Below are positions 18,110 through 35,314 of a stretch of 35,384 nt of DNA, one piece after another (position 1 is the first letter of the stretch; the number at the start of each line of letters is the position of its first letter). The notes under the pieces were generated by a model. It made no database searches, was not told the origin of the DNA, and saw only the letters and a list, made by a program, of their open reading frames with translations. Source of the stretch: Actinomycetota bacterium (GTDB lineage Bacteria > Actinomycetota > UBA4738 > CALAEC01); NCBI GenBank assembly GCA_036833435.1, contig DAITPV010000002.1, positions 1 to 35,384 of the forward strand, written 5' to 3'. Both the position numbers and the translations under genes were made by a program.

Positions 18110-18183
18110 GGGCCGCTAGCTCAACTGGCTAGAGCAGGGGCCTCTTAAGCCCAAGGTTGCAGGTTCGAGTCCTGCGCGGCCCA
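18110..18183 (+). tRNA. tRNA-Lys (anticodon CTT); integration target of the downstream element
   Basis: Manual cloverleaf: acceptor GGGCCGC/GCGGCCC, D stem GCTC/GAGC, anticodon loop CTCTTAA, T arm GCAGG-TTCGAGT-CCTGC, discriminator A. Its 3' 45 nt are duplicated at 35267-35311. Confidence 0.9.
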
Positions 18184-18186
18184 CGA
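18139..18186 (+). repeat. attL core: 48-bp direct repeat (3' part of tRNA-Lys plus 3 nt)
   Basis: GGCCTCTTAAGCCCAAGGTTGCAGGTTCGAGTCCTGCGCGGCCCACGA is identical at 35267-35314. Flanking bases differ on both sides. Confidence 0.9.
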
Positions 18187-18254
18187 TGAAAATGCAGGTC
18201 AGGGACCCACGACAGTCGAACCGGTGTTCTTGGCGGCCCGAGATGCTGGACATC

Positions 18255-18273
18255 CGCAACCCAAATGCAACCC
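18255..18273 (+). repeat. pair of direct (C/T)GCAACCC repeats, 11-bp phasing (candidate arm-type recombinase/RDF sites, attL side)
   Basis: cGCAACCCaaaTGCAACCC. The same motif pair with identical 11-bp spacing and orientation is at 35135-35153. Confidence 0.55.
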
Positions 18274-18302
18274 GAGCGCCGGCGATCTCCGGCTAGGCAG
18301 CC

Positions 18303-19211
18303 GTGGGGCTGGTAGCGGAAATCCGCGATGACGCCGTCAGGCCGGACGTCCCAACGTCCGTTCTTCTCCGCAAGTGCCTTGTGCTCGCCTCACGGCTGGG
18401 GCACCAGCCTTTGATGGAGTGGGTCCAATACGAGCTCAACGGTTACCCCGACGATGCCCCGTTGCCCTCCTATCGCGGCCCCCACGCCCTGACACCGATG
18501 GCCCACCTCGCCGGTCCTTTTCGCTCCGAGGTGAGGAACCTCCAGGTCCCCATCGGGGCGATTCCTGAGTACGCCAGAGAGTGGCTAAAACACGAGACGC
18601 GGGAGGCTCTGGCCGGCCTTGAACACACGGTCCGCCAGGCGGAGAGCAAGGGCCTCGGTTCTCTGAGGGTCCACCTCCCAGCGGACCTGGCGCCCCAAGT
18701 AGAGATCTACGAGGGGCACACGACCGTTCAGCTCTGGCTAGAAATACCCCTCAGCCTGGGAGTGGCGATCCTCGACCAGGTACGAAATCGAGTCCTGAAC
18801 TTTGCCCTGGAGATCGAAAAGGAGGATCCCCGGGCGGGCGAGGCCGAGATCGGGTCGCAGCCCATCCCAGAAGACCGGGTGGCGCAGATCTTCAACGTGG
18901 TGGTGATGGGCGGAGAGCATAGCTGGAGCCTTGGATCGTCTGGTCAAACGATTCAGCTGATCGAGGCGAACGTTCAACCTGGCGAACTCAAGAGCCTGGT
19001 CGAGTTCCTTCGAGGGCAGGGATTGCCCGAGTCCCAGATCAAGGAGCTTGAGCAAGCTCTCGAGGAAGACGGCTCGATCACAGGGGCTGAGCCGGGGCCC
19101 CAGACCAAGGGTTGGCTACGCCGGACGGCCGATAAGGCTGGGGAGGTGGGTTCGTCCGTTGCGGCCGGGGTCATCACCGCAGCCCTCAACCGTTACCTCG
19201 GGCTCAGCTGA
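18303..19211 (+). CDS. AbiTii-domain-like protein (putative abortive-infection/defence cargo)
   Basis: 302-aa ORF (GTG start). The N-terminal pattern ...VPTSVLLRKCLVLASRLGHQPLMEWVQYELNGYPDD..LPSYR matches my recollection of AbiTii-type N-terminal domains. The C-terminus has a short hydrophobic helix (VGSSVAAGVITAAL). It is the first gene inside attL. Confidence 0.5.
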   Translation: MGLVAEIRDDAVRPDVPTSVLLRKCLVLASRLGHQPLMEWVQYELNGYPDDAPLPSYRGPHALTPMAHLAGPFRSEVRNLQVPIGAIPEYAREWLKHETREALAGLEHTVRQAESKGLGSLRVHLPADLAPQVEIYEGHTTVQLWLEIPLSLGVAILDQVRNRVLNFALEIEKEDPRAGEAEIGSQPIPEDRVAQIFNVVVMGGEHSWSLGSSGQTIQLIEANVQPGELKSLVEFLRGQGLPESQIKELEQALEEDGSITGAEPGPQTKGWLRRTADKAGEVGSSVAAGVITAALNRYLGLS

Positions 19212-19396
19212 TTCCCGAGGAAGCTGGCCTGGACGAAGGCCTCGATGTCCTCACGCCGGAACCGGACCAGCTGGCCCAGGCGGATGTGGGGAATCCGCTG
19301 CTCCTGGGCCCACAGATAGACCGTGTTCCGCTTGATCCCAAGGTAGGTGGCGACCTCCTCGGCAGTCATCAAAGGGACTAGGGGCCGCTCATCCAC
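19193..19396 (-). CDS. excisionase-family (MerR/Xis-like) helix-turn-helix DNA-binding protein
   Basis: MTAEEVATYLGIKRNTVYLWAQEQRIPHIRLGQLVRFRREDIEAFV is a typical Xis/AlpA-type winged HTH. Start is GTG 19396 or ATG 19369. The 3' end overlaps the convergent AbiTii-like gene by 19 nt. Confidence 0.75.
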   Translation of the reverse strand: MDERPLVPLMTAEEVATYLGIKRNTVYLWAQEQRIPHIRLGQLVRFRREDIEAFVQASFLGNQLSPR

Positions 19397-19405
19397 GGTC
19401 GGGGA

Positions 19406-19708
19406 TCATATGCCCCCGGCGATCACCCCGGAAGCCAGCGCTCCGACCAGCAACTCCCACTGCAACTGTTCCCAGCGGAAGAGGCAACGGTAGAGAGCAC
19501 CGTTCACGATCTCCTGGTAGCTCAGGATGTCGGCGGCGATCCAGCCCTCCGCGTCACCATTATCGAGCTGCACCCGCTCCGGCGTAGGCCAAACATCCCG
19601 TGCCTCCTCCAGTGACGGGAACTCCATGAGGATCTGGCCTTCCTCCAGGAGCCGAGGGTCCTCCCAGCGAACGAGGTACCAGCCATCGGTCTGTCTCTGT
19701 TGAATCAC
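19406..19708 (-). CDS. hypothetical protein with hydrophobic C-terminal tail
   Basis: 100-aa ORF; GTG start preceded by GGGAGGTGG. C-terminal LLVGALASGVIAGGI. No recognisable domain. Confidence 0.5.
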   Translation of the reverse strand: MIQQRQTDGWYLVRWEDPRLLEEGQILMEFPSLEEARDVWPTPERVQLDNGDAEGWIAADILSYQEIVNGALYRCLFRWEQLQWELLVGALASGVIAGGI

Positions 19709-19836
19709 CCTGGGCCACCTCCCATAGTGGCTCCCTGTGAAGAGGCCCGGGGCAGGGGCAGGGACACCCTTTTCGGCCGTACGTGCCTAGCCCTGGGCCC
19801 GCCGGACTGTACCAAGCGGGCCCGACGAAACCGCTG

Positions 19837-20127
19837 TCATCGAGTCAGGCGGGCCTCCTCGTCATCCTCGACTTCCTCGGTGAAGATCAGCACCTTGTGG
19901 CGAGTCTCTCCGGCCTCGTTCGTCCAGATGATGTGCTCGGCCGGACCGGTGGCCCTGTAGACCTTCCCTGTGTACTCGGGGTGCGGCCAGACCCGGGAGT
20001 TGATGATGTCCCCCTCGTTGATCGGCAGGAACGGAGTCTCTGACTCGAACAGGACCATGACGTCTCGGGTGCTGCCGGGCTCGTAGATCTCCAGCATGTA
20101 CCTCCTGATGGGATCCGCTTTTGCCAT
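19837..20127 (-). CDS. hypothetical protein, tightly coupled to the integrase 3' end
   Basis: 96-aa ORF. The ATG lies 3 nt after the integrase stop. Acidic C-terminus (EEVEDDEE). Confidence 0.5.
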   Translation of the reverse strand: MAKADPIRRYMLEIYEPGSTRDVMVLFESETPFLPINEGDIINSRVWPHPEYTGKVYRATGPAEHIIWTNEAGETRHKVLIFTEEVEDDEEARLTR

Positions 20128-20130
20128 CGC

Positions 20131-20930
20131 CTAGATCCTCCCCTCCCCGCCGATGATGAGGTCGGCCACCGCATTGGCAGCCTGCTCCTCCAGAGACGGG
20201 ATCGAATGGCTGTACGTGTCGATCGTGAGGGTGATCGTCGAGTGGCCGAGCCTGTCAGAGACGACCTTCGGGTGAACACCGGCTGCGAGAGCGAGAGTTG
20301 CGTACGTGTGACGGAGGTCGTGTAGCCGGATCCGTGGAAGGCCGGCGTCACTCGCGCGGCGTTGGAACGCCTTTGAGAACTCGTCAGGGTGGACTGGCGA
20401 CCCGTCCTCCTTCGCGAAGACCAGGCCCTGGTCCCGGTAGGCCGGCCCCCAAGCCAGTCGCTCCTTTGCCTGCTGCTTCAGGTGGTCGCGGAGAGCCGCG
20501 ATGGTCGCGGGGTCGAGCGAGATCCGTCGTCGGCTTCGCTCCGTCTTGGGCTCGGTGACCACCACGCGATACCCGACCGCAGTGATGGCCTGGCGGACGG
20601 CGAGGGTGCCGGCGGTTAGATCGACATCCTCACGTCGAAGGCCCAAAACCTCCCCACGACGCATGCCGGTCGTGGCCGCGAGGAACCAGGCAGCGAAGAG
20701 CCTGTCTTCCCGCACGTGCTGAAGGTAGGCACGAAGCTGCTCCGCGTCCCAGGTCTGCATGGGAACTCGGGGCTGCCTTGGAAGGCTCTGATTTTGGGCG
20801 GGGTTCCGCACCAACCGCCCCTCCCGTGTGGCTTCCAGGAAAGCCCGATGGAGGGTGGCCCCGATGTACCTGACCGTTCGTGGTGAAAGTCCGGAGCGAT
20901 CCCCATTTCTCCGCCCCCTCTCCAGCAGTC
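20131..20930 (-). pseudogene. int: tyrosine integrase, C-terminal fragment (rest of the core-binding domain plus catalytic domain), separated from its N-terminus by an IS
   Basis: The frame is open from the IS boundary: ...LLERGRRNGDRSGLSPRTVRYIGATLHRAFLEATREGRLVRNPA..., then catalytic motifs RRGEVLGLRREDV, HDLRHTYATL and LGHSTITLTIDTYSH. There is no ATG or GTG at its 5' end. Confidence 0.9.
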
Positions 20931-20947
20931 GGTAGTGGGTCAGTTTG
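20931..20947 (+). repeat. IS left terminal inverted repeat
   Basis: GGTAGTGGGTCAGTTTG begins GGnnnTG, like the ends of E. coli IS1 (GGTGATG...). Confidence 0.9.
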
Positions 20948-21022
20948 CCCGCTGAGCTGCCCTCACGCCAGAGCGGTCAAGCAGGGACCGCCTATCTCCT
21001 CTTACCCAAGGGCCTCTGGCGG

Positions 21023-21280
21023 CTAGTCAACGGTGCCGCCCAGGTCCTCGACTATGGCCTTGAACTGAGCGACCAGCGTGTGGAAACGCTCGGGCCTGAT
21101 CCACACGTGAGCTACGCCCTCATGCTGGGGCCCTCCGGGAGCAGGATGTATCGCTTCACGGGCAAACAGGATGGCGATGCCGTCCTTCTGCGCCCGGATG
21201 AAACAGCCTTGGGCGAATGAAGGCTCGGCCATCTCATCGTCGATCTCCACGGGGACGTTCCCGTAGGTCAGGATTGCCAA
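21023..21280 (-). CDS. hypothetical protein (IS passenger, downstream of the transposase)
   Basis: 85-aa ORF. TTG start 24 nt after the transposase stop, preceded by GGGAGGGG, which sits in a CCCCTC/GAGGGG hairpin. Confidence 0.4.
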   Translation of the reverse strand: MAILTYGNVPVEIDDEMAEPSFAQGCFIRAQKDGIAILFAREAIHPAPGGPQHEGVAHVWIRPERFHTLVAQFKAIVEDLGGTVD

Positions 21281-21303
21281 GGTACCCCTCCCTTCAGAGG
21301 GGT

Positions 21304-22143
21304 CTAGTCAAGCAGCCCGGCGATCTCTTCGAGGGTCCAGACGTGATCGGTGACCCCTGCCGCCATCGCCGGGGTGGTCGGGTAGCGCTGGCTGAGGGTC
21401 TTATGGGGTCTGGCGAAGTTGTAGTGCATGAAGTGGAGGGACACGGCATGGGCCAGGTTCTCGACCTTCCGGCTGAACGCATTGGTCAGCCGAGTGAAAC
21501 GGCGCATCCCCATCCGGATCGTGAGGTTCTGCCGTTCCACATAGGACGTGGAGATGTGAGCGGGATCGGGGTCACCGTAGACTCTGATGGTCTCGACTCC
21601 GGTGCATTCCGTCGGGCTGTATCGACGAGCCGCGTCCTTCACGTTCGGCGGGGTCCCGTAGTGCTTTTCGAGCATGGCGTAGTCGATGCGAGGGCCGAAG
21701 GTCTCGGTGACTGCTCGGACGTAGATGCGGTTGCCGTCGGTAGTGAGCTGGATCCGATTCTTCACTCGGGAGGCCAGGTCCTTCATGAATACGTAGGCGT
21801 CGATGGCCTGGCGCTCCCCGACCAGCCAGGTAGGGACCAGCTTGGTGTCGGCATCGAGGGCCACCCACGTCCACACGTCCCCGTACTCAAAGGGATGCTC
21901 GGGCTTGACGTTCTTGGCCTTGGCCCCCACGAAGGCCCATATCTCGTCGCACTCGATCCGCTTGGAGTCCAGGTCCCGGAGGGTGGCGTCCTGGTACTTG
22001 GAGCAGGCATCCCCGAGGTCTCTGAGCAGCTTGACCACGGTGTTCTTGGCGGCACCCGTCACCCTGACAGTGGCCCGGATGCTCATGCCCTCGACCAAGC
22101 ACCCGATGATCTGTGCCCTCTTCTCGGTGCTCAGCATGTTCAT
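21304..22143 (-). CDS. IS1-family DDE transposase (single fused ORF)
   Basis: Motifs parallel E. coli IS1 InsAB: CDEIWAFVGAKAKN (vs DEQWGYVGAKSRQ), LTTDGNRIY (vs MTDGWPLY), YVERQNLTIRMGMRRFTRLTNAFSRKVENL (vs [28 protein letters not shown]). N-terminal HTH. Start set to ATG 22141-22143, just downstream of a TTGACT-17-CATAAT promoter; ATG 22152 and TTG 22179 are alternatives. Confidence 0.85.
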   Translation of the reverse strand: MNMLSTEKRAQIIGCLVEGMSIRATVRVTGAAKNTVVKLLRDLGDACSKYQDATLRDLDSKRIECDEIWAFVGAKAKNVKPEHPFEYGDVWTWVALDADTKLVPTWLVGERQAIDAYVFMKDLASRVKNRIQLTTDGNRIYVRAVTETFGPRIDYAMLEKHYGTPPNVKDAARRYSPTECTGVETIRVYGDPDPAHISTSYVERQNLTIRMGMRRFTRLTNAFSRKVENLAHAVSLHFMHYNFARPHKTLSQRYPTTPAMAAGVTDHVWTLEEIAGLLD

Positions 22144-22150
22144 ACTGATC

Positions 22151-22179
22151 ATTATGCCTGACCGGTCAAGCATAGTCAA
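22151..22179 (-). promoter_or_regulatory. candidate transposase promoter (TTGACT, 17-nt spacer, CATAAT)
   Basis: On the minus strand the -35 is at 22179-22174 and the -10 at 22156-22151. The ATG at 22143 lies 7 nt after the -10, implying a leaderless or near-leaderless mRNA. Confidence 0.5.
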
Positions 22180-22210
22180 GGGGGTATCCTCATCGGCCGA
22201 TGGGGAAGCT

Positions 22211-22528
22211 GTGTCGGCCCTAGCCAGCGACCTGTTCGAACCGCCGCTCGATCCCGGTATCGCGGAGGCAGTGATCCTCCTGCGCGAAGCGGGGATCGAG
22301 ACCTTCGAATCCTGCGAGGGAGGGCCAGGGCATTCCTACCCCGAGCCAACTGTCGCCTTCAATGGGGAACCCTCGGCCGGCTTTCAGGCCTATGCGGTGG
22401 CCGTCCAGCACGGTCTCAAAGTGAACACTCTTCGTCGAGTGTGGCGGGTGGACTACGGGGAGCTGACCGGGCCGTGGTGGGAGCTCACGCTGGTCCCACC
22501 ACGCCCAAGCCAGGCCCTACCCTCCTAG
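22211..22528 (+). CDS. hypothetical protein (IS passenger)
   Basis: The long track ORF (antisense to the transposase) was trimmed to GTG 22211, preceded by GGGGAAG. 105 aa with no recognisable domain. Confidence 0.4.
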   Translation: MSALASDLFEPPLDPGIAEAVILLREAGIETFESCEGGPGHSYPEPTVAFNGEPSAGFQAYAVAVQHGLKVNTLRRVWRVDYGELTGPWWELTLVPPRPSQALPS

Positions 22529-22692
22529 GACTGCAGGTCCCTGCAGTCCTTGCAGTGCCTCAGCCCTCCGGTGCCTTCGACACGGTTGTACGACTCGATG
22601 TTGTTGCCAGTCGTGCATTTCGTGTCGTCGTGATAGACACCATCCGGCTTGCCCTCCTCCAGTCTGGAGTGCCATGGGTTCGTTTTGGCCAC
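22525..22692 (-). CDS. small Cys/His-containing protein (55 aa; not in the ORF track)
   Basis: Hand translation gives VAKTNPWHSRLEEGKPDGVYHDDTKCTTGNNIESYNRVEGTGGLRHCKDCRDLQS*. GTG start preceded by GGGGGAGGTGA. It has its own TTGACT-16-TATGCT promoter plus an operator palindrome. Confidence 0.55.
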   Translation of the reverse strand: MAKTNPWHSRLEEGKPDGVYHDDTKCTTGNNIESYNRVEGTGGLRHCKDCRDLQS

Positions 22693-22724
22693 CTGGGATC
22701 ACCTCCCCCGTCCCGGCTGGGAAC

Positions 22725-22738
22725 TTACATCCATGTAA
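22725..22738. promoter_or_regulatory. operator-like palindrome TTACATCCATGTAA
   Basis: Perfect 6-2-6 palindrome 6 nt downstream of the -10 (TATGCT, 22750-22745) of the 55-aa gene. A near-identical copy is at 23004-23017. Confidence 0.55.
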
Positions 22739-22812
22739 TTTCGAAGCATATCAGCCGGGATCAGGGAGTCAAGCACCAGGGCGGGGGGAACGGGAAGGGC
22801 AGATCGGGGGAG

Positions 22813-22980
22813 CTAGGCGGGGGTGACTCTCCGCTCGGATTCGATGTACCGGCGCAGGGCGCTGCGGATGATCCGGGCTATGGGCCGGTCCTCGGCCTCG
22901 GCCTGTTCGTGGAGGGCTTCGCGCAGATCACCGGGCAGCCGCACCACGTACTGGTACTGGGTGACGCGGTCCTTCGCCAT
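22813..22980 (-). CDS. ribbon-helix-helix (CopG/Arc-type) DNA-binding protein
   Basis: Trimmed to the ATG at 22978-22980 (GGGAAGGGAG SD). MAKDRVTQYQYVVRLPGDLREALHEQAEAEDRPIARIIRSALRRYIE shows a beta-strand then helix-helix pattern. Confidence 0.7.
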   Translation of the reverse strand: MAKDRVTQYQYVVRLPGDLREALHEQAEAEDRPIARIIRSALRRYIESERRVTPA

Positions 22981-23003
22981 CCCGACTCCCTTCCCGTGGG
23001 GAA

Positions 23004-23017
23004 TTACGTCCATGTGA
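23004..23017. promoter_or_regulatory. operator-like near-palindrome TTACGTCCATGTGA in the RHH gene promoter
   Basis: Overlaps the last base of the -10 of a TTGACC (23045-23040), 17-nt spacer, CAGAAT (23022-23017) promoter on the minus strand. It matches 12 of 14 positions of the 22725-22738 palindrome. Confidence 0.55.
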
Positions 23018-23056
23018 TTCTGCCGAATACCAAACGATTGGTCAAGCGTGTCCAGG

Positions 23057-23326
23057 CTACCGGCTTCGCTTCCGACCCTCAGGGGAGCGCTTGCCGCGCC
23101 ACCGGGCGATGGCGGCCTTCCTGGCGATCTCCTGGCGCTTCTTGGCGCTCAGCGCCTTGGCCCTGGCCTTGCCCCCCTTGAGGCCACCCTTCCGCCCCAG
23201 CTCGACCGCTGCGGGGTCCTTCGGGGGTGCCTCGGGCTTCGGGGGTGCATCGCCGGTAGCCTCATCGATGAGCTGCTTGGCGAGTTCGTTTACGTCCCTC
23301 GGCCGCTTGCGTGAGCGCTCAGGCAT
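23057..23326 (-). CDS. small basic Lys/Arg/Ala-rich protein (IS passenger)
   Basis: 89-aa ORF. GRKGGLKGGKARAKALSAKKRQEIARKAAIARW is a motif I recall from small MGE-associated proteins of unknown function. Confidence 0.5.
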   Translation of the reverse strand: MPERSRKRPRDVNELAKQLIDEATGDAPPKPEAPPKDPAAVELGRKGGLKGGKARAKALSAKKRQEIARKAAIARWRGKRSPEGRKRSR

Positions 23327-23375
23327 GGCCCAAGGGTCCCACCCGAGCCCCTGAGCGTCAAGGCTGGCTATCCCT

Positions 23376-23392
23376 CAAACTGACCCACTACC
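23376..23392 (+). repeat. IS right terminal inverted repeat
   Basis: CAAACTGACCCACTACC is the exact reverse complement of 20931-20947. It supplies the GSGSV-stop tail to the truncated integrase N-fragment. Confidence 0.9.
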
Positions 23393-23752
23393 CAGCAGTC
23401 CCGCGTAGAAGGCATTCAGCTGAGCGGTGGTCAGCTGCTGGAGCCTGATGCTCCCCAGGCCCGGGATCACGTGGTGCTCGAGGTTCCTCCGATAGGAGTC
23501 CCACGTTGAAAGCCGGACGCGGGCCTTGGCACCCTCGAGCCACTGAAGGAGATACTCCCCGACGGTGAGCCGGGACGGCTCCACATACGTTCCTTGCGCC
23601 AGGCGGCCCTCCTGCTCTGTGAGCCAGTCGCGAGCTTCACGCTTGGTCGCAAAGCCGCCCTTCCAAATCCGCTTCCTGTTCCGGGCCTCATCCCGCCCCA
23701 ACTCGATGATGGCAACCCACCTGCTCCCCCGCCTCCATACACGGCCTCTCAC
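23393..23752 (-). pseudogene. int: tyrosine integrase, N-terminal fragment (arm-binding and start of core-binding domain)
   Basis: GTG start overlaps the repressor stop (GTGA). RGRVWRRGSRWVAIIELGRDEARNRKRIWKGGFATKREA...TVGEYLLQWLE...STWDSYRRNLEHHVIP is a typical phage-integrase N-terminus. The reading frame runs into the IS end and stops at 23375. Confidence 0.9.
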
Positions 23753-24192
23753 GATTCCTCCCCCTTCACCTTGGCAATCTCGATCGACTCCACCCCGACA
23801 TCCAGCCGGCGCACGCCTCTCCCAGGTCCCGGGCTCTCGTCCTCCAGGAGGTGCCCCTGCAAACGCAAGCGGTCACCCGCCTGAAGCCCTCGAGGCTGGC
23901 CCGGCATGAGCAGGTGGATCTTCTCGGGGGGATTGCGAAGGGCTCCCGTTGGTCTCTGGCCTGTGGTCGTCGCGATCAGCTCCGCGTGGGAAACCCCCAG
24001 GGCGTTGGCCAGGCCCGCGAGAGTTTCGGGACGAGGGAACCGGGAGCGGCCCTGCTCGATCTTCCGGATCATGTCGATCGAGAGGCCAGATCTCTCAGCC
24101 AGATCTCGTTGGGTCAATCTGAGCCTCCTGCGGCCCTCAACGCACGCTTCCTTGAGTCTCGAGGCCGAGTCAACCTTCCCGGGCCTGCTCAC
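23749..24192 (-). CDS. XRE-family HTH repressor (cI-like), co-transcribed with int
   Basis: HTH LTQRDLAERSGLSIDMIRKIEQGR. 147 aa. The GTG start sits 6 nt after a -10 hexamer, so it is probably leaderless. Divergent from a cro-like gene. Confidence 0.8.
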   Translation of the reverse strand: MSRPGKVDSASRLKEACVEGRRRLRLTQRDLAERSGLSIDMIRKIEQGRSRFPRPETLAGLANALGVSHAELIATTTGQRPTGALRNPPEKIHLLMPGQPRGLQAGDRLRLQGHLLEDESPGPGRGVRRLDVGVESIEIAKVKGEES

Positions 24193-24198
24193 ACAATC

Positions 24199-24228: not shown

Positions 24229-24353
24229 GGGATCGGGTTTGCGCAGGTAGGCGGCCTCGCCCGCTCCTGACCAGCCTCGCCTCATTGCTTGTAAGCGGTT
24301 CGCGTGACACGAGCACGAGACTGGGTTGACCGAGAGATTTGGATGGAGGCGAG

Positions 24354-24554
24354 ATGATCCAGCTCAACCAACTTCGCCGGGCCCGGGAGCTCAGCCAGCG
24401 CGACCTTGCCCTACTTGCCGGCGTCTCCCCTGCTCTGATCGCTCTGGTCGAGCAGGGTAAACGGCGCCTGGGAACCCAGGCCCGGAATCGGATTCTGGCG
24501 GCCCTCGAGCTCGGCCAGAACGAGGCTCAGCGGGTCCAGGAGCTCGCCGGATGA
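24354..24554 (+). CDS. XRE-family HTH protein (cro-like)
   Basis: ATG 24354 preceded by GGAGG (the track ORF starts at an upstream TTG). HTH LSQRDLALLAGVSPALIALVEQGKR. Confidence 0.75.
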   Translation: MIQLNQLRRARELSQRDLALLAGVSPALIALVEQGKRRLGTQARNRILAALELGQNEAQRVQELAG

Positions 24555-25220: not shown

Positions 25221-25222
25221 CC

Positions 25223-27583: not shown

Positions 27584-27598
27584 CGGCTCTCTCCCTCC

Positions 27599-28108: not shown

Positions 28109-28162
28109 GGGCTTCCTTGGAGCCTACCCGGAGCTCGCCCCGGGTGCGACTTCCCCATGGGG

Positions 28163-28644: not shown

Positions 28645-28875
28645 ATGCCGGGGCCGTTTGACACGGCCAGGACAGTTTTCAGTGTGGCGAGCCAGGGTTC
28701 TCGATACCTCAGTCCTCTCGAGGTGGCGCAACACCTGGGGGTCCAGGTCGAGACCGTCCGGGACTGGATCCGCCGGGGCGAGCTCCGCGCGGTTCGACTC
28801 GGCCGGCTCCTGCGAGTCCGACGGGAGGACCTGGAGGCATGGCTTTCGCAGCGTGTCGTTGGGAGCGCCACGTGA
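28645..28875 (+). CDS. excisionase-family HTH DNA-binding protein (third copy in the element)
   Basis: LSPLEVAQHLGVQVETVRDWIRRGELRAVRLGRLLRVRREDLEAWL is close to the 19193-19396 product (RLGQLVRFRREDIEAFV). AGGGGAG SD. Confidence 0.7.
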   Translation: MPGPFDTARTVFSVASQGSRYLSPLEVAQHLGVQVETVRDWIRRGELRAVRLGRLLRVRREDLEAWLSQRVVGSAT

Positions 28876-28975
28876 ACAGCTGTCGCTGTCTCATCCGAAC
28901 GGACCGCGCCCAGCTCTCGCCCGAGTGGGTCGGGGCTCCCGGGTCAGGTCTCAGGCGAATGGGTGGTGCCAGCGC

Positions 28976-29965
28976 ATGAGCACCCTGGACGAAGCGATCG
29001 AGACGCTGAAACGTGCGGGGACGGCTGGGCCCCGGGCCTCAGGCCCGGTCTCCCCGCTCCGCAAGGAGTTCTCGGCCGTCGATGTTCGGGTGGTCGACTC
29101 GAAGCAGCGACGCCTGGGGATCGTCATCTCAACCGAGGCCGAGGATCGGGACGGCGACATCATCGAAGTGGCGGGCTGGGATCTGACGAACTACCGGAGG
29201 AACCCGGTCGTTCTCTTCGCTCACGACTACCGATCCCCCGCCGTCGGCAAGGCCATCTCGGTGGTGAAGGACACCGTCGGGCAGGCGCTGCGCTCCGTCG
29301 TGGAGTTCGCTCCCACGGAGATGGGCCGGCAACTGTTCGAGCTCTACGCCGGAAAGTACATGCGGGCCTGGTCCGTGGGTTTCCTCCCGAAGGAGTCCGT
29401 CCGCCGCCGCGAAACGGAAGACGGCTACACGGGTCGTGGCGTGCGCTTCAGGCGCCAGGAGCTCCTGGAGTACTCGGCCGTGCCGGTGCCGGCCAATGCC
29501 GAAGCCCTGACCGATGCAGTGACCCGAATGGCGCGCGGAGCGTCCGCGCTCCAACCCACCGGCTCAGCCGAGGATCCCGACGACGCTGTTGCTCGACTCG
29601 TCTACGCCGCTGAGCGGCGGGTCATTCACCGGTGGCCCCTGGGTCGGAGTGTTCCCCGGCTGGAGGCCAGCGACCTGGTCGCAAGGGCTTGCCGAATCGT
29701 TGGGCTGGCGCCGATCAGGATCGTTCAGGGACACCGCGACGGGCGAGCCAAACGGGTTCGAGGTCGCCCGCTCATCTTCCTGAGCGAACGGGGGCTCCGG
29801 CCGCTGTACATCCTCCATGAGGTTGCTCATCACGCCGCCGGCCTCGAGCACGGTCACGATGCTGACTTCCGCCGCCGCTATAAGCACCTCGTGTCTCGGT
29901 TGCTGGGCCACCCGGAGGCCCGGGCGCTGGCCCAAGCATTCCGGGAGAAAGGGTTAGACGACTGA
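28976..29965 (+). CDS. HK97-family prohead (capsid maturation) protease fused to a C-terminal HExxH zincin-like region
   Basis: Track ORF trimmed to ATG 28976. ISTEAEDRDGDIIEVAGWDLTNYRRNPVVLFAHDYRSPAVGK...AWSVGF...EYSAVPVPAN is a classic S78/HK97 protease core. The C-terminal ~130 aa contain LYILHEVAHHAAGLEHGHDADF. Confidence 0.8.
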   Translation: MSTLDEAIETLKRAGTAGPRASGPVSPLRKEFSAVDVRVVDSKQRRLGIVISTEAEDRDGDIIEVAGWDLTNYRRNPVVLFAHDYRSPAVGKAISVVKDTVGQALRSVVEFAPTEMGRQLFELYAGKYMRAWSVGFLPKESVRRRETEDGYTGRGVRFRRQELLEYSAVPVPANAEALTDAVTRMARGASALQPTGSAEDPDDAVARLVYAAERRVIHRWPLGRSVPRLEASDLVARACRIVGLAPIRIVQGHRDGRAKRVRGRPLIFLSERGLRPLYILHEVAHHAAGLEHGHDADFRRRYKHLVSRLLGHPEARALAQAFREKGLDD

Positions 29966-30615
29966 TGAGTGGAGACGATCGATTCACTGATGCCGCCGGA
30001 CGCCTGAAGCAACTCCGCTCCGAGATCGCCGCTCTGAGCGACGGCGTGAAAGCCACGCAGCGGGCCGTCTCTGACGCCATCGCGAATGGCGAGGAGGCGA
30101 GGCGGATCCTCGGAGCAGCAAGAGCCAGGGTGGCGGAGGCGGAGCAGGAGCTCGCCCAGGCCACCGCCGCGAGGTATCAGGCTGAGGCCGCCTCGGGACC
30201 TCGAACCGATCCCGCAGCGGCAAAGCAAGAGACCACCGCCCGGGAAGCGCTTCATCGGGCTCGCCAGGAGCTGAGGACCGCGGAGCTTGGCTCCGAGGAG
30301 GCCGATCGTGTTCGCGAGCTGCTGCGCGAGCATCTGAACGAGGTCGAGCAGGAGGCCCGGTCCCAGAAATCCGGAGCCAAGTCGAAGGCGGCGTCCGAGA
30401 TCCTGGCGCACGTCAAGGCCTCCTGGGCTGACGTCCGCCTTCTGCTCGCCGAGCTGTCCGCCATCGGGGCAATCCCCGAGGGGGACAACCCCGTGGCGAC
30501 GAACGTGGCCGACGATGCCGCCGCCGCCTTCGAGCAGCGGATGGGCTGGGCTGGCTCCGTCAGCGAAGGCCGGGCGCTCGAGCGGGAGCGAGCCTCGATC
30601 CTTGGTGGGCGCTGA
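29965..30615 (+). CDS. Ala/Glu/Arg-rich coiled-coil protein (possible scaffold-like protein)
   Basis: ATG overlaps the protease stop (TGATG). 216 aa, mostly predicted helical. The scaffold assignment rests only on its position after the protease. Confidence 0.5.
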   Translation: MSGDDRFTDAAGRLKQLRSEIAALSDGVKATQRAVSDAIANGEEARRILGAARARVAEAEQELAQATAARYQAEAASGPRTDPAAAKQETTAREALHRARQELRTAELGSEEADRVRELLREHLNEVEQEARSQKSGAKSKAASEILAHVKASWADVRLLLAELSAIGAIPEGDNPVATNVADDAAAAFEQRMGWAGSVSEGRALERERASILGGR

Positions 30616-30628
30616 GGGTGGGGGGGTC

Positions 30629-31978
30629 GTGACGGCCGGCATGATCACAACCCCGGCACCGGCTGGCCTGGGGTATGCGTCCGATCCCCCCACCCTGATC
30701 GCCGACCTCCTCCATCTCCCGGATGGCCAGCACTTCGGCGAGGCGATGGCCCCGTTCCAGCGAGAAGACTTCGCCGCCCACTTCGGCGCGGCCGCTCCGC
30801 CAAACACGTGGATCTCCCGACCGAGAGGTGGATCCAAGACCACGGACACAGCAGCGATCGCCATCACGGATCTGCTCCTGGCTCCCGACCGGAGCCGCCT
30901 ATACGCCGTCGCGGCCGACCAAGAGCAGGCAGGGCTGATCCGAGAGGCAATCATGTCCTGGGTCGCGTCGTCCCCCGCCCTTGAGGACGTCTTCGACATT
31001 CAGGCGAACCTCATCGCCAACCCGACGACGGGGACGGTGCTGCGCATCATGGCTTCTGACGCCCCCTCGGCGCTTGGCCTTCTTCCCTACAGGCTGTACC
31101 TCGACGAGCTCACTGCGTGGCCAAGCCGGGCCATGTGGGACGCGGTGATCTCCGCCGCGCACAAGGTTCCTGGTGCGCGGGTGCTCGTCATCTCGACCGC
31201 CGGATCCCCGGCGCACTGGTCCTACTCACTGTGGCAGCACGTGGTCGAGTCCCCCACCTGGCAGGTGAGAGAGTCCCAGGAGCTCGCTCCCTGGGTATCC
31301 GGGGAGCAGGTCGAGGACCAGCGAGCCCACCTGCCGTCAGGAATCATCGCGCGCTGGCTGGAAAACCGGTGGGCGTCGGCAGATGAAGCCCTGCTCTCAC
31401 TCGAGGACATCGTTGCTTGCACGGACCACGACCGGGAGCCGTCGGTCGCCGGCGACGGAGCGGGCCCGTACAGGATCGGCGTCGACTTCGGCTGGAAGCA
31501 CGACCTGACCGGCGTTGCGGTCGTACGTGGTGGCCGGCGGAGCCGGGTCCACCGACTCGAGTACCTGTGGACCCGCCAGGGCTCGCGGGAGGCCCCGGTG
31601 CAGGTGGCTGAAGTGGAGGATAAGATCCAAAGCCTTCAGCGCCGATTCCGACCAGCTCGCGTCATCGTGGATCCGACCCAGCTCGTTGGAACGGCCCAGC
31701 GACTACCGAGGGTCGAGGAGTTCCCGTTCACCGCCCAGAGCGTCGGGAAGCTCTCCACGGTGCTGCTGTCACTCATCCGGGAGCGGCGGCTGCGTCTTCT
31801 CCCCGACGAGGAGCTTCGCACAGAGCTCCTCTCCCTGGTCGTCAGGGAGAGCACATACGGCTGGAGGATGGAGGCTGCCCCCGGGGCTCACGACGACCGC
31901 GCGATGGCCCTGGCGCTCGCGGCCTTCGCTGCGGAGGAGGCTCCGAAGAGTCCCCAGATAGGGATCTGGAAGCTGTGA
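30629..31978 (+). CDS. terminase large subunit
   Basis: Walker A-like RPRGGSKT, Walker B LYLDELTAW, coupling motif ISTAG, nuclease motifs GVDFGWKHDLTGVAVV and GAHDDRAMALALA. GTG 30629 follows GAGGGTGGGGGG; ATG 30641 is an alternative start. Confidence 0.85.
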   Translation: MTAGMITTPAPAGLGYASDPPTLIADLLHLPDGQHFGEAMAPFQREDFAAHFGAAAPPNTWISRPRGGSKTTDTAAIAITDLLLAPDRSRLYAVAADQEQAGLIREAIMSWVASSPALEDVFDIQANLIANPTTGTVLRIMASDAPSALGLLPYRLYLDELTAWPSRAMWDAVISAAHKVPGARVLVISTAGSPAHWSYSLWQHVVESPTWQVRESQELAPWVSGEQVEDQRAHLPSGIIARWLENRWASADEALLSLEDIVACTDHDREPSVAGDGAGPYRIGVDFGWKHDLTGVAVVRGGRRSRVHRLEYLWTRQGSREAPVQVAEVEDKIQSLQRRFRPARVIVDPTQLVGTAQRLPRVEEFPFTAQSVGKLSTVLLSLIRERRLRLLPDEELRTELLSLVVRESTYGWRMEAAPGAHDDRAMALALAAFAAEEAPKSPQIGIWKL

Positions 31979-32211
31979 GCAATTCCCCTCGGAACGAAAC
32001 CGATCTCGAGCGCACCAGGCTCGCTCTCGATCGAGCCACTCGGGATTTGGCCACCGACCGGCAACGGCTCTTCGAGCTCGGCAACAAGCGTGATCCCGAG
32101 TCCCTTCAGCTGGCCTCCGTGCTTAAGCAAGTAGTCCAGGACCGGACCTGGATCGTCCAGGTGCTGAAAACCGAGGAGTCCAGGTTGGCCGAACGCGTGA
32201 GGACAGGATAG
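31975..32211 (+). CDS. small helical hypothetical protein
   Basis: GTGA overlap with the TerL stop. 78 aa. Confidence 0.45.
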   Translation: MSNSPRNETDLERTRLALDRATRDLATDRQRLFELGNKRDPESLQLASVLKQVVQDRTWIVQVLKTEESRLAERVRTG

Positions 32212-32215
32212 CCCA

Positions 32216-32527
32216 ATGCCGGTAGGCCGCGTCCGAGAAGGGAACACCGATCCGGGTGACCTCGCGTACATTCGAGTGGAACTGGCAGCTACGTGTCCCT
32301 GGCCGCGTTGCTGGGAGCGCGCAGCTGGTCAGGATCCGGCACCAGCGCTGTGCTGGTGGCACCTCCTCGAGGTTCGGCCGGCCGAGCAATGCGCGTGGCC
32401 GGGGTGTGCTTCTGCTCCGATCGGCCTCTTCTGCTACCCCCACGACAAGCTCGTCTGTGGGCTGATCGATCCGGCCGGTCACGATCCGCTCCGCCTGCGT
32501 GTACTGGCGAGCCTTCCGATCGGATGA
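32216..32527 (+). CDS. Cys/His/Trp-rich small protein (putative zinc-binding)
   Basis: 103 aa with repeated C-W-P-x-C-like units (CPWPRCW, CWWH, CAWPGC, CYPH). Confidence 0.45.
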   Translation: MPVGRVREGNTDPGDLAYIRVELAATCPWPRCWERAAGQDPAPALCWWHLLEVRPAEQCAWPGCASAPIGLFCYPHDKLVCGLIDPAGHDPLRLRVLASLPIG

Positions 32528-32673
32528 CCAATGACGCCGCGACCACCGTTCGATGCCCCGAATGCGGGGCCACCCGCGATGTCCTCGTCAACCTGGCGGT
32601 GCACTGCGAAGCAGACGGAACGCTCATGGAGCCCACCGAGCAGGGTTGGGGGTGGTCGGATGCGCCGCTGTAA
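32524..32673 (+). CDS. small zinc-ribbon-like protein (49 aa)
   Basis: ATGA overlap with the upstream stop. CPECG...HC. Confidence 0.35.
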   Translation: MTNDAATTVRCPECGATRDVLVNLAVHCEADGTLMEPTEQGWGWSDAPL

Positions 32674-32784
32674 GCCTCCCTGTGCCGCTCGAACCTCTGT
32701 TCGGGTCCCCTGGTCCACAGAACCCCCCCACCGCAGCCGTAGCTCCGACCCTGCAGCAAAGAACGCTATCCCAGGGGCTGCCCG

Positions 32785-35133
32785 GTGCCGCTGAGCGGAG
32801 GGATCGCGGCGGCGGTGGGGGGAGCCGCCGGCGGCGACATCCTGATCCGTCTGCTCCTGGACGGGAAGCAGTACCAAGCCGGCCTGGCGGCAGCTCGCGC
32901 CCAGGCCCAGGGGTTCTCCAGCCGGATGATCTCGGCCGGCCGGACCATGCAGTCGGTCGGTTCCACCATGACCCGCCGGTTCACCCTTCCGCTCGTCCTG
33001 GCCGGCGGGGCGGCCGTGAAGCTCGCCGTCGACTTCAACGAGTCGATGACCCACATCAAGGCCCTGGTCGGGGCGAGCGACGCCCAGATCTCCAGGTACC
33101 ACGACACGATCCTCGACATGGCGGGGGCCGTGGGGAAGTCCCCGCAGGAGCTTGCCGAGGCCCTGTACTTCGTCACCTCGGCGGGGTTCTCAGGGGCCAA
33201 GGCTCTCGACGTACTGGACGCGTCCGCCAGAGCTTCGGCGGCCGGCCTCGGCGAGACCATGACGGTGGCCGATGCGGTCACCTCCGCCGTGAACGCCTAT
33301 GGCGAGAAGGTGCTGTCGGCGGAGCAGGCCACCGACATCCTTCTAGCCACCGTCCGGGAGGGCAAGGCCGAGCCTGAGGAGCTGGCCGGCTCCATCGGCC
33401 GCGTGATCCCGGTCGCCTCCGACCTGGGGGTGTCCTTCGACGAGGTCGGAGCTGCCCTCGCCGGCATGACGCTGTCGGGGTTCAACGCCGCGGAGGCAGC
33501 CACCAACCTGGGCGGGATCTTCTCCTCGCTCCTGAAGCCGACCACCAAGGGTGACGAAGTGCTGAAGTCTCTCGGCCTGACCCTCGACGACGTCCGGGCG
33601 ATGGTCGAGGACGAGGGCCTGTTCCCCGCGTTGATGATGCTGCGCGAGGAGCTGGGCAACGACAAGGAGGCCATGGCCTCCTTGTTCCCGAATGTGCGGG
33701 CGCTGCGAGGTTTCCTGAACCTGACCGGGGCATCGGCGGAGAAGAACGCCGGCGTGTTCCGCGATCTCAGCGGAGCGGTCGGCGACACCGACAAGGCGTT
33801 CCAGGACATCCAGGAGGATCCGGCTCACAAGTTCCGGGAGGCCTGGTCCGACGTGCAGGCCACCATGATCGAGGCGGGCGAGAAGATCCTGCCCGTCGTC
33901 ACGAAGATCATCGAGGAGGTCGGTGGCATCGTGGGCGCCTTCGGGAATCTAGACGAGGGCACCCAGGAGTTCATCATCTGGGCTGGAGCCATCACCGCGG
34001 CAGCGGGGCCCGCCGTAAATCTGCTCGGGAACCTCCTTAGGATTGGCGGCCGCCTCGGCCGGATGAAGTTCCCGATCCCTGGTGGCACAGGCGGAGCCGG
34101 TGGGGGTGTCGGCGCCATTCCCTTCCTTGCAACCGGCCCGGGGGGACTCGCGATAGCCACCACGCTGACTGCGGTCACGGCAGGCATCTACAACATCGGC
34201 CAGGCCGCTCAAGACAAGACGCAGTTCATCAACGCGATGTCTCAAGCTCTCCTCGCGGGACACATGAACACAAGACAGCTCCGCGAGGAGCTCATGAGGA
34301 TGCGAATGACGGAGGGCCCGATCCGTGGGCTGTACGACCAGGTCGCCCTGATGGACAACATCGTGGCTCAAGCGAACGTCTCCATCCTCGATCAGTCCCG
34401 CAACCTGCGCCGGCTGGGGATCGAGCTCACCGATGCTGAGCTGGCCGCCTACCAGAACTACGTCGTCCAGGGCGACCTGTACGGCCAGATGGTCGTTCTG
34501 AACGGCGCACTTCAGCGAGGACTCGGCCCCCTCAACAACCTCGTTGGTTCGCATCGCTCCGCCGCCGCGGCAGCAGCCGACCACGCCCAGAAGGTTCAGG
34601 GCCTCGGTGCGGCCATGCGGAACGTCCCCGACGCGAGCCCGAAGATCAACTTCCCCAGCATCGACGACGACCTCGCCAAGCTTGGGCGCCTCCGTGGGGA
34701 GCTCAACACCCTCGACGGCCAGAAGGCCACGATCACCGTCCACACCAACTACACCCGCTCCGGCACTCCGCCCGGAGGTATCCCCGGTGGCACACCCGGC
34801 GGGGCGGGAGGCCACCAGGCCCAACACGGGTGGCACGGCTGGGTGCACGGCCCGACGTGGTTCCTCACTGGTGAGGGTGGCCAGTCGGAGCGGGTGGACA
34901 TCTCGCCGAAGAACAGCGTGCACGGCCCGGTCGCGGGCGGGAAAGGAGCCGCGGCCGCGGCGCTGTCCCCTCTCAGGTTCTCTGGAACCCTGACCGGCAA
35001 GCTGAGCACGCCCCTCGGCCTGGCCGACTTTGAGGGGATGGCGGAGCTGGCTGCCGAGGCCGTGGGCGCGGACGTCCTTAGCGCAGCGTCCAGCATGGTG
35101 GAGCAACAAGTCTGGGCTGGGATGCGGCGATGA
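32785..35133 (+). CDS. phage tail tape measure protein (TP901-family core region)
   Basis: 782-aa ORF. The N-terminal third (MTHIKALVGASDAQ...ILDMAGAVGKSPQELAEALYFVTSAGF...ATDILLATVREGKAEPEELAGSIGRV) matches the TMP core. Central Gly-rich hydrophobic segment and helical remainder. Confidence 0.8.
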   Translation: MPLSGGIAAAVGGAAGGDILIRLLLDGKQYQAGLAAARAQAQGFSSRMISAGRTMQSVGSTMTRRFTLPLVLAGGAAVKLAVDFNESMTHIKALVGASDAQISRYHDTILDMAGAVGKSPQELAEALYFVTSAGFSGAKALDVLDASARASAAGLGETMTVADAVTSAVNAYGEKVLSAEQATDILLATVREGKAEPEELAGSIGRVIPVASDLGVSFDEVGAALAGMTLSGFNAAEAATNLGGIFSSLLKPTTKGDEVLKSLGLTLDDVRAMVEDEGLFPALMMLREELGNDKEAMASLFPNVRALRGFLNLTGASAEKNAGVFRDLSGAVGDTDKAFQDIQEDPAHKFREAWSDVQATMIEAGEKILPVVTKIIEEVGGIVGAFGNLDEGTQEFIIWAGAITAAAGPAVNLLGNLLRIGGRLGRMKFPIPGGTGGAGGGVGAIPFLATGPGGLAIATTLTAVTAGIYNIGQAAQDKTQFINAMSQALLAGHMNTRQLREELMRMRMTEGPIRGLYDQVALMDNIVAQANVSILDQSRNLRRLGIELTDAELAAYQNYVVQGDLYGQMVVLNGALQRGLGPLNNLVGSHRSAAAAAADHAQKVQGLGAAMRNVPDASPKINFPSIDDDLAKLGRLRGELNTLDGQKATITVHTNYTRSGTPPGGIPGGTPGGAGGHQAQHGWHGWVHGPTWFLTGEGGQSERVDISPKNSVHGPVAGGKGAAAAALSPLRFSGTLTGKLSTPLGLADFEGMAELAAEAVGADVLSAASSMVEQQVWAGMRR

Positions 35134-35134
35134 G

Positions 35135-35153
35135 TGCAACCCTCCTGCAACCC
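35135..35153 (+). repeat. pair of direct TGCAACCC repeats, 11-bp phasing (candidate arm-type sites, attR side)
   Basis: TGCAACCCtccTGCAACCC starts 2 nt after the TMP stop. The second copy pairs with CGGGTTGT (35165-35172) to form a hairpin. Confidence 0.55.
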
Positions 35154-35266
35154 GGACAGACGAACGGGTTGTCACGAGCCAGCACGAGACCGGGGGCCGT
35201 AACTCCAGACCCTCTGGTCGGGGTAACGCAGGAACACTGGATGGACGGAGTTACACGGACGGTCCA

Positions 35267-35314
35267 GGCCTCTTAAGCCCAAGGTTGCAGGTTCGAGTCC
35301 TGCGCGGCCCACGA
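35267..35314 (+). repeat. attR core: second copy of the 48-bp repeat (partial tRNA-Lys 3' end)
   Basis: Identical to 18139-18186. No tRNA 5' half lies upstream of it. Confidence 0.9.

Follow-up and report, generated by a model that had tools for sequence, protein, structure and literature searches.

A satellite-like, phage-related element with its own terminase in a tRNA-Lys(CTT) gene of an uncultured actinobacterium

What kind of mobile element occupies the tRNA-Lys(CTT) gene of an uncultured high-GC actinobacterium: a prophage, the remains of one, or a phage satellite that would depend on a helper? The question arises from the window, i.e., the whole 35,384-nt stretch of DNA analyzed here (Actinomycetota bacterium, assembly GCA_036833435.1, contig DAITPV010000002.1), which is an entire metagenome contig and in which a preliminary description placed a phage-related element between two perfect 48-bp att copies, at 18139-35314. 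As first stated, the finding, an att-flanked phage-like island in a tRNA gene, is routine. Three points are new: the integrase gene is broken by an insertion sequence (IS), the unit resembles a satellite and not a prophage, and it appears to belong to a widespread, apparently undescribed family that carries genes for the small and large terminase subunits (TerS and TerL). The element is almost certainly a site-specifically integrated mobile element. Judged by its genes, it is phage-related and does not appear to be a prophage able to build a virion; rather probably, it is a helper-dependent satellite of the phage-inducible chromosomal island (PICI) kind, a lifestyle deduced from gene content.

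The tRNA-Lys site and the att repeat

ARAGORN calls five tRNA genes in the window. The features that define the ends of the element, in window positions, are:

18030-18104: tRNA-His(GTG), directly upstream of tRNA-Lys (ARAGORN, Rfam)
18110..18184, plus strand: tRNA-Lys(CTT), the integration target and attB-bearing gene (ARAGORN; Rfam tRNA, 65.6 bits, end at 18184/18183)
18139..18186, plus strand: attL core, the final 45 nt of tRNA-Lys plus CGA (exact 48-nt repeat)
18256..18273, plus strand: GCAACCC-N4-GCAACCC, candidate arm-type integrase site (P′ arm), 70 nt inside attL
35136..35153, plus strand: GCAACCC-N4-GCAACCC, candidate arm-type integrase site (P arm), between the stop codon of the tape measure protein (TMP) gene and attR
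35267..35314, plus strand: attR core, a tRNA 3′ fragment without the 5′ half (exact 48-nt repeat)

The two cores form a direct repeat, identical at 48 of 48 positions, on which a repeat search and a reading of both regions agree; about 2e-18 such exact pairs are expected by chance at the base composition of the window. The identity is bordered by G vs A on the upstream side and T vs G on the downstream side. The block runs from the anticodon stem through the T-arm and the acceptor 3′ strand to the discriminator A (45 nt), followed by CGA. The second copy lacks the tRNA 5′ half, as had been stated: neither ARAGORN nor Rfam calls a tRNA at 35267-35314, and what precedes it bears no relation to the 5′ half of the tRNA. 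Measured from start to start, attL and attR lie 17,128 nt apart, or 14,658 nt without the 2,462-nt IS and one copy of its 8-nt target duplication, in agreement with the earlier sizes of about 17.1 and 14.7 kb. In the proposed event, a tyrosine integrase would have recombined the attP of the element with the 3′ 45 nt (plus CGA) of tRNA-Lys(CTT), rebuilding the tRNA-Lys gene at attL and leaving the 3′ fragment at attR.

The arm-type sites of lambda-like integrases look like pairs of repeats, one helical turn apart, on each of the two arms. The motif GCAACCC-N4-GCAACCC occurs twice in the 35-kb window, in the same orientation, and none of 100 shuffled sequences holds a single copy, while the single heptamer GCAACCC is not enriched in the window. 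Since the paired motif is present at each inner flank and the integrase has an Arm-DNA-bind_4 domain, both flanks look like parts of one attP; the motifs fit putative arm-type sites to which the integrase would bind. The earlier proposal of tyrosine-integrase targeting of the tRNA 3′ half, drawn from an identity block that starts in the anticodon stem, is thus in keeping with the exact core, the arm sites, the arm-binding domain and the about 19 bounded relatives described below.

The 45-nt core matches three contigs of one metagenome (L058, L059 and L060). In all three, tRNA-His and an identical tRNA-Lys are followed by CGA, which therefore belongs to attB, and tRNA-Leu(TAG) lies 10-900 nt further on. 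A tblastn search finds no match to the element proteins in these contigs, and their tRNA-Lys site appears to be unoccupied; their right flanks cannot be aligned to the 70 nt that remain in the window past attR. This short flank (35315 onward) starts with GAGTGTCGCTGG, and a 28-mer taken from it has 0 matches in the metagenome contig collection. The 45-nt core has 0 matches in viral contigs, hence no attP-bearing viral contig was found among them.

Gene content of the element and its relatives

Open reading frames (ORFs) were picked by codon-position GC bias and annotated with Pfam, PHROGs, PADLOC and NCBIfam. The right part of the element holds the packaging and virion-related genes:

26868..27413, plus strand: TerS-like protein (family “c2”), putative, with weak matches to Pfam Terminase_4 (1e-3) and PHROG TerS (5e-3)
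27416..28615, minus strand: three ORFs (55, 169 and 150 aa), probably cargo; no Pfam, PHROG or PADLOC match
28976..29965, plus strand: HK97-type prohead serine protease (S78) with a C-terminal extension that contains HEVAHH (Pfam S78, 9e-8; PHROG, 1e-20)
29965..30615, plus strand: 216-aa orphan, a helical hairpin, scaffold-like by position (AlphaFold2 helices 4-77 and 83-136, pLDDT up to 97)
30515..31978, plus strand: TerL (Pfam TerL_ATPase, 2e-8; PHROG TerL, 2.6e-38 and 6.7e-22, ATPase and nuclease regions)
31975..32794, plus strand: three small ORFs (78, 103 and about 49-87 aa) in the tail-chaperone position, a candidate role suggested by that position; no matches
32785..35133, plus strand: TMP, 772-782 aa (Pfam PhageMin_Tail, 5.5e-30; PHROG TMP, 1.2e-72)

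TerL retains every invariant residue of the family alignment; its public gene call is 449 aa long, with a start near 30629. The TerS-like and TerL genes are 3.2 kb apart, with three reverse-strand ORFs between them. A search of the PDB by sequence, with either the TerS-like protein or a 42-member TerS-like profile, gives no meaningful match. The TMP is apparently full-length, has hydrophobic segments in its center, shares 36% identity with the TMP of Pontimonas phage phiPsal1, and is encoded by the last gene before attR. Exact-protein look-ups with the TMP, TerL and 103-aa ORF calls return 0 matches; the public calls use other start codons.

The S78 protease keeps the family-invariant residues H83, S133 and E165, and its AlphaFold2 model matches the T4 gp21 prohead protease with a probability of 1.0; a PDB sequence search with the protease gives nothing meaningful. 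Its homologues span the protease domain only and leave the C-terminal extension uncovered. In that extension, residues about 270-320 include HEVAHH, which is zinc-metallopeptidase-like, and match TIGR04338 (HEXXH, Rv0185-type metallohydrolase) weakly, at 8e-6; the AlphaFold2 model allows no fold assignment for the extension, where its confidence is too low. The 216-aa orphan has two remote unannotated relatives, otherwise no homologues, and no meaningful PDB sequence match. The AlphaFold2 model predicts an all-helical hairpin for this protein and not an HK97 capsid fold.

Searches of the element with Pfam and PHROGs find no portal, capsid, tail-tube, connector or lysis gene. All ORFs above 200 aa are accounted for, the largest unassigned one being the 216-aa helical hairpin. 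With no ORF remaining that could encode a portal, major capsid or tail-tube protein, and no lysis gene seen, the element should not be able to build a virion as a prophage would.

TerL is also the key to the relatives of the element. Beyond itself, it has 16 detectable homologues in an index of 5.8 billion proteins. The best match among 50,697 phage records has 32% identity over 34% of the query, and the TerL clade is absent there; no relatives are found in IMG/VR viral contigs, and plasmids yield one weak match, nothing useful. A TerL profile scanned over one genome per GTDB species recovers 54 loci, almost all labelled Actinomycetota, with carriers in Solirubrobacteraceae (Solirubrobacterales), Acidimicrobiia, Gaiellales, Microbacteriaceae (Micrococcales), Nocardioides and Propionibacteriales. 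Three carriers are cultured: Demequina subtropica NBRC 109396 (L012), Enemella sp. A6 (L017) and Antiquaquibacter soli WY-16 (L023).

At about 19 of the 54 loci, a scripted search places TerL in a stretch of 8.9-14.7 kb that has the 3′ end of a tRNA gene on one side and an exact repeat of it (34-59 nt) on the other; the targets are Leu, Pro, Met, Gly, Arg, Gln, Val, Cys and Lys tRNAs. Two of these members, L014 and L018, are at tRNA-Lys(CTT) beside tRNA-His, and their identity block begins at the same tRNA position as in the window. L001, an 84-kb contig of an Actinomycetota metagenome-assembled genome (MAG; TerL homologue P0006), has a member bounded by tRNA-Leu(CAA) and, at a distance of 14,388 nt, by 59 nt that repeat the 3′ end of this tRNA exactly; chromosomal genes lie on both sides, trpA and trpB among them. 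The member contains an integrase, HTH (helix-turn-helix) and HTH_17 genes, SSB and TerL, followed by three small genes, the gene of a PhageMin_Tail protein of 862 aa and one further ORF. A member of 8.9 kb (L003) is located at tRNA-Leu(TAG).

When proteins are grouped by blastp, TerL is present in 47 loci, the TerS-like protein in 43, the integrase in 38 and HTH_17 in 24; the TerS-like gene directly adjoins TerL, or runs into its start, in many of the loci. The order of genes is constant: att/tRNA, integrase (minus strand), repressor-like gene (minus strand), cro-like gene, HTH_17, replication gene, TerS-like gene, TerL, a variable right arm, and att. The product of the replication gene is a D5 helicase in some members and an AAA_25/DnaB-like protein or a Prim-Pol in others. 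In a Pfam census that covered 144 proteins (at least 130 aa long) from 20 elements, replication genes and defense cargo predominate; the latter comprises Eco29kI with a C5 methylase, Mrr, GmrSD, NYN and AbiTii. Virion-related genes recognized in the right arms include:

L015, L024 and L030 (and the window): S78 protease
Window, L001, L024 and L049: tape measure proteins
L049: glucosaminidase/M23 wall hydrolase

On this evidence, the TerS/TerL-bearing family seems widespread across Actinomycetota and is apparently undescribed. It could be a new satellite family, compact and conserved, that combines its own TerL with exchangeable virion genes, TMPs included, in a phylum where satellites are barely characterized. 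Such elements are easily misfiled as “defective prophages” in annotation. The three cultured carriers make helper dependence, remodelling of capsid or tail, and defense functions directly testable.

Some family members have features of their own. Tandem arrays or an adjacent second integrase at the same tRNA are seen in L008 (2900-16455), in L042 (3379-16100) and at the left ends of L024 and L030, and two MAGs have two members each (L011 and L042; L034 and L057); a similar tandem element could follow attR in the genome from which the window comes. L049 (17,456 nt) has a 141-nt terminal overlap and is thus apparently circular, at 17.3 kb; it encodes an integrase, D5 helicase, TerS-like protein, TerL, the glucosaminidase/M23 hydrolase and a TMP_3 protein, and could represent the element in an excised or episomal state. 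No tRNA-like attP is found in circular L049 with a simple T-loop pattern. In all three members at tRNA-Lys(CTT), the contigs end 14-70 nt past attR (14-20 nt in L014 and L018), one of these contigs being 386 kb long; heterogeneity of the population, tandem elements or a repeat just beyond the site could account for such ends.

The integrase gene of the window copy is in two parts:

20131..20930, minus strand: tyrosine integrase, C-terminal catalytic part (Pfam Phage_integrase, 1.6e-20; HDLRHT and TYSH motifs in the reconstruction)
20931..23392, minus strand: IS1-family insertion sequence, 2,462 bp (repeat search, sequence reading, Pfam, NCBIfam)
23401..23752, minus strand: tyrosine integrase, N-terminal part (Pfam Arm-DNA-bind_4, 7e-10; Phage_int_SAM_3, 1e-14)

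An IS had been noticed inside the element, and its position can now be refined: it splits the integrase gene itself. Its terminal inverted repeats are perfect over 17 nt (GGTAGTGGGTCAGTTTG, starting GGTAGTG) and 74% identical over 38 nt, and an 8-bp target duplication, CAGCAGTC, is found at 20923-20930 and 23393-23400. A transposase remnant at 21304-22179 (minus strand), in a frame that looks fragmented, matches Pfam DDE_Tnp_IS1 at 7e-8 and the NCBIfam IS1 transposase at 6.9e-18, the latter below the curated cut-off. Terminal inverted repeats, an 8-bp duplication and best transposase matches to IS1, with the NCBIfam score below its cut-off, are the features by which the IS is assigned to the IS1 family. 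A length of 2.46 kb is unusually long for this family, and its opposite strand has an unannotated 235-aa ORF (22474-23181); perhaps the IS contains passenger DNA, or is itself in decay.

Removal of the IS and one duplication copy in silico restores a single continuous integrase ORF of 383 codons with HDLRHT and TYSH, which matches Xer-type recombinases (NCBIfam). Since the IS splits the gene, this copy can no longer excise itself and is locked in place, except where an integrase is supplied in trans. The repressor and integrase genes overlap at the integrase start and therefore probably form one operon; the insertion is then probably polar on what follows the integrase gene downstream on the minus strand, namely the two ORFs without assigned function and the gene for the Xis-like protein. 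Both the integration and the IS insertion seem to be recent events, given that the att repeat is perfect and the ORF is restored cleanly. The inactivated integrase gene would make this a case of a mobile element fixed in the chromosome together with its AbiTii defense gene.

The remaining genes are those for cargo, regulation and replication:

18303..19211, plus strand: AbiTii-family abortive-infection (anti-phage defense) candidate, cargo beside attL (Pfam PF18864, 4e-39; PADLOC AbiTii, 3.6e-37)
19193..19396, minus strand: HTH_17 (MerR/Xis/AlpA-like) small DNA-binding protein, candidate excisionase (Pfam PF12728, 1.8e-16)
19406..19708, minus strand: 100-aa ORF without assigned function (codon-bias call; no Pfam, PHROG or PADLOC match)
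19733..19797, minus strand: match to the Rfam int-alpA RNA motif (RF02996, 40.6 bits vs a gathering score of 35.8)
19837..20127, minus strand: 86-96-aa ORF without assigned function (codon-bias call; Pfam and PHROGs run)
23749..24192, minus strand: cI-type HTH repressor candidate (Pfam HTH_31 and HTH_3, about 1e-11; 4-nt overlap with the integrase start)
24339..24554, plus strand: cro-type HTH protein, divergent from the repressor (Pfam HTH_31, 1.8e-8)
24551..24811, plus strand: second HTH_17 protein (Pfam PF12728, 1.2e-10)
25223..26623, plus strand: P4/D5-family replicative helicase with D5_N, DUF5906 and Pox_D5 (Pfam; PHROG DNA primase, 8e-132; NCBIfam primase_Cterm, P4 family, 1.2e-83)
28684..28875, plus strand: third HTH_17-like small ORF (blastp cluster with the two HTH_17 genes)

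A promoter-like site precedes the cI-type repressor gene (24228-24199, minus strand). The D5 helicase has no primase domain, and its PHROG match covers the C-terminal half of the profiles only. The int-alpA motif is positioned between two small ORFs, 3′ of the integrase gene and 5′ of the HTH_17 gene; it is absent from the seven related loci searched and is therefore not a feature of the family. With Pfam, PHROGs or NCBIfam matches to the integrase, cI/cro, Xis-like HTH_17, P4-family D5 helicase, terminase, S78 protease and tape measure genes, the reading of the DNA between the att copies as typical of mobile genetic elements is borne out.

Satellite, prophage or artefact

The case for a satellite is drawn from the narrow size range of the family, its fixed architecture, intact genes and private TerL lineage, its defense cargo, and the lack of a full set of virion genes. 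Satellites of several kinds offer points of comparison. PICIs, including the phiRv1/phiRv2-like candidates of Mycobacterium, where small tRNA-integrated PICI-like elements have been found (PMC10654092, PMC10085698), are likewise about 10-15 kb long and tRNA-integrated, with a tyrosine integrase at one end. They share divergent HTH regulators, an Xis/AlpA-like HTH protein, a P4/D5-family replication protein, defense cargo, the lack of a full virion set and perhaps, if the putative TerS-like protein is one, a small-terminase gene, and the phiRv-like elements share the host phylum, Actinomycetota. The 14.7 kb of the element without the IS fall within the size and layout that define PICIs (about 7-18 kb, integrase at the end, divergent regulators, a replication module). 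Classic PICIs, however, have neither TerL nor TMP; PICIs are defined as free of tail and lysis genes, and in the window element a TMP is present and no lysis gene is found. The candidate PICIs of Mycobacterium are defined by a capsid gene, whereas no capsid or remodelling gene is recognized in the window element, a comparison made by description.

Capsid-forming PICIs (cfPICIs), described mainly in Proteobacteria and Firmicutes (bioRxiv 10.1101/2022.09.08.507074, PMC10085698), resemble the element in satellite size, in having their own TerL and a head protease together with a TerS (putative in the element), and in a TerL lineage apart from known phages. They differ in that the portal, major capsid and head-tail connector genes of cfPICIs are not found in the element, which in turn carries a tail gene, TMP, that cfPICIs by definition lack. 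Satellites with a TMP were first reported in a December 2025 preprint (PMC12822802) on the EPIPs, 11-kb satellites of Mycolicibacterium aichiense. These are also small actinobacterial elements with a TMP, a TerS (putative in the window element) and a scaffold-like protein and without tail tube or lysis genes, and their TMP is linked to altered tail length (PMC12822802); according to the same preprint, TMPs are otherwise unknown in satellites except for a TMP-like protein that a different recent preprint proposed for PLE11. By contrast, the integrase of EPIPs is of the serine type, they encode head-tail adaptors as well as a major capsid protein, and neither TerL nor a D5 helicase has been reported for them; the element has a tyrosine recombinase and no capsid or adaptor gene, so that only the TMP and the small size are in common. 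EPIPs were isolated as free particles (PMC12822802), whereas the element is known from its genes and is compared by description.

P4-like satellites match in tRNA integration, integrase, P4-family D5 helicase, AlpA-like HTH protein and defense hotspot. They differ in their Psu, Delta, Sid and Epsilon proteins, of which no equivalents are recognized in the element, in lacking its terminase, protease and TMP, and in host phylum. The AICEs (integrative and conjugative elements of actinomycetes; PMC2440964) share the phylum, a size of 9-24 kb, a tyrosine integrase that targets tRNA 3′ ends, Xis and a replication gene, but the element has phage packaging and virion genes in place of a conjugative translocase: no FtsK/TraB-type translocase, Spd or Nudix gene is matched by Pfam in the element, and none is among the 25 commonest families of the 20 elements. 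Nor does the element hold the portal, capsid, tail tube, baseplate or tip, and lysis genes of a complete temperate tailed prophage. It is filed as a satellite-like variant outside the PICI, cfPICI, EPIP and AICE families.

In the life cycle proposed for such a satellite, the repressor would hold the element silent in lysogeny until a helper phage lifts repression; integrase and Xis would then excise it at the 48-nt tRNA-derived core, and the D5 helicase would replicate it. The element’s own terminase would package its DNA into helper procapsids, which would be joined to helper tails. The variable right arm would be a “hijack” arm; in the window copy, the prohead protease, the helical scaffold-like protein and TMP may alter or re-size the assembly of the helper capsid or tail. 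A bolder and tentative extension is that the family forms an undescribed, phylum-wide class of satellites with its own TerS and TerL lineage and an exchangeable virion-assembly arm (protease, scaffold-like protein, capsid or TMP), whose members might use helper shells and tail tubes with a packaging specificity of their own, those with a TMP setting tail length.

Several points weigh against a satellite. Satellite models count the tape measure gene among their “forbidden” tail components (PMC10085698), and the right arm of one relative, L008, encodes a major head protein (PHROG, 1.4e-48). The identification of the “c2” protein as a putative TerS draws on weak hidden Markov model scores and gene position. 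Many ORFs of the element are unannotated, and divergent structural proteins could have been missed by such models. Genes of the related loci were called with a simple purpose-made caller and grouped by all-against-all blastp, and portal, capsid, tail-tube and holin families are absent from the 25 commonest of 53 families in the Pfam census of 20 elements. An exact empty site was not found: the 70-nt right flank is unmatched, and the right flanks of element-free relatives are unrelated to it. The end of the contig 70 nt past attR leaves room for a tandem partner or an assembly effect. Beside the observed boundaries, gene identities, IS disruption and family size and synteny, helper dependence and the roles of the virion genes, like excision, induction and packaging, are predictions from sequence.

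Decay of a temperate siphovirus prophage, in which internal deletions took the portal, capsid, tail and lysis genes and spared both att ends, is unlikely, if the strongest of the other explanations. The protease, TerL and TMP are phage-derived, and the protease has a close homologue in a real phage, where it adjoins a capsid gene. The scrambled order, with TerS 3.2 kb from TerL across reverse-strand ORFs, and the D5 protein without a primase domain would suit a degenerating genome, and an IS has already inactivated the integrase, i.e., decay would be under way. However, about 19 relatives in different Actinomycetota orders share the size range of 8.9-14.7 kb and the gene order between intact att repeats, and such convergence is not expected of prophages that decay independently. 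The ORFs are long and intact, TerL has all invariant residues, the att repeat is perfect, and the TerL clade is unseen in isolated phages.

It is far less probable still that the contig is an assembly artefact in which the chromosome was joined to a separate, perhaps episomal, element via a shared 48-nt attB/attP core. The window is a whole metagenome contig that stops shortly past the second core copy, the contigs of the other two tRNA-Lys(CTT) members stop in the same way, and L049 shows that a circular 17.3-kb contig occurs in the family. Against this, the layout is exactly that of an integrated element, long-contig relatives (L001 with 84 kb, L012, L017 and L023) are integrated in the same manner, flanked by chromosomal genes on either side, and the 48-nt repeat is, we infer, shorter than the usual final assembly k-mers. 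A circular wrap-around of the contig is rejected, since the two core copies are followed by different sequences.

A complete, autonomous miniature temperate phage, with capsid, portal and tail proteins too divergent to recognize, is scarcely credible. Very small siphoviruses of actinobacteria exist, and many ORFs are unannotated, but the assigned genes leave about 2.5 kb of small ORFs, the largest of which is the 216-aa helical hairpin; no ORF is big enough for a portal, and TMP is the last gene before attR. Finally, the reading of the second 48-nt copy as an independent tRNA-Lys gene or pseudogene, a case named in the preliminary description as one that would overturn it, can be dismissed, since nothing more than the identity itself speaks for it and the copy has no ARAGORN or Rfam call and no acceptor or D-arm upstream, and directly follows the candidate arm sites and the end of the TMP gene.

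The chromosome to the left of the element

Everything to the left had been described as housekeeping, which is too strong. L059 is syntenic with the window through tig, tRNA-Pro, tRNA-Gly and tRNA-Arg and then leads straight to tRNA-His. The stretch at 4977-18000 (about 13 kb, from tRNA-Arg(TCT) to tRNA-His) is missing there, and the two tRNAs are about 1.1 kb apart. In the window it contains genes for a Na/H exchanger, an FG-GAP protein, a solute-binding protein, a saccharopine-dehydrogenase-like protein, ChrA and two RTX-repeat proteins, and it appears to be a flexible (variable) region, not plain housekeeping. The possibility that 4977-18000 is a second att-bounded island was considered and rejected, no repeat of the tRNA-Arg(TCT) 3′ end that would bound it being found in the window.

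The two RTX-type calcium-binding nonapeptide-repeat genes (14463-15434, minus strand; 16666-17994, plus strand) have 27-nt periodic repeats and NCBIfam matches to RTX and serralysin families. At 3658-3684, 49 nt from the tRNA-Pro(TGG) gene (3707-3782, minus strand), is a degenerate copy (85% of 27 nt) of its 3′ end, which may be an old att scar. In L058, at 1899-1958, the 5′ half of tRNA-Leu(TAG) is joined to the 3′ part of tRNA-Lys(CTT), about 700 nt past the intact tRNA-Lys and with an inverted tRNA-Leu nearby; this hybrid has the appearance of a scar left by a rearrangement in the corresponding tRNA cluster of a relative.

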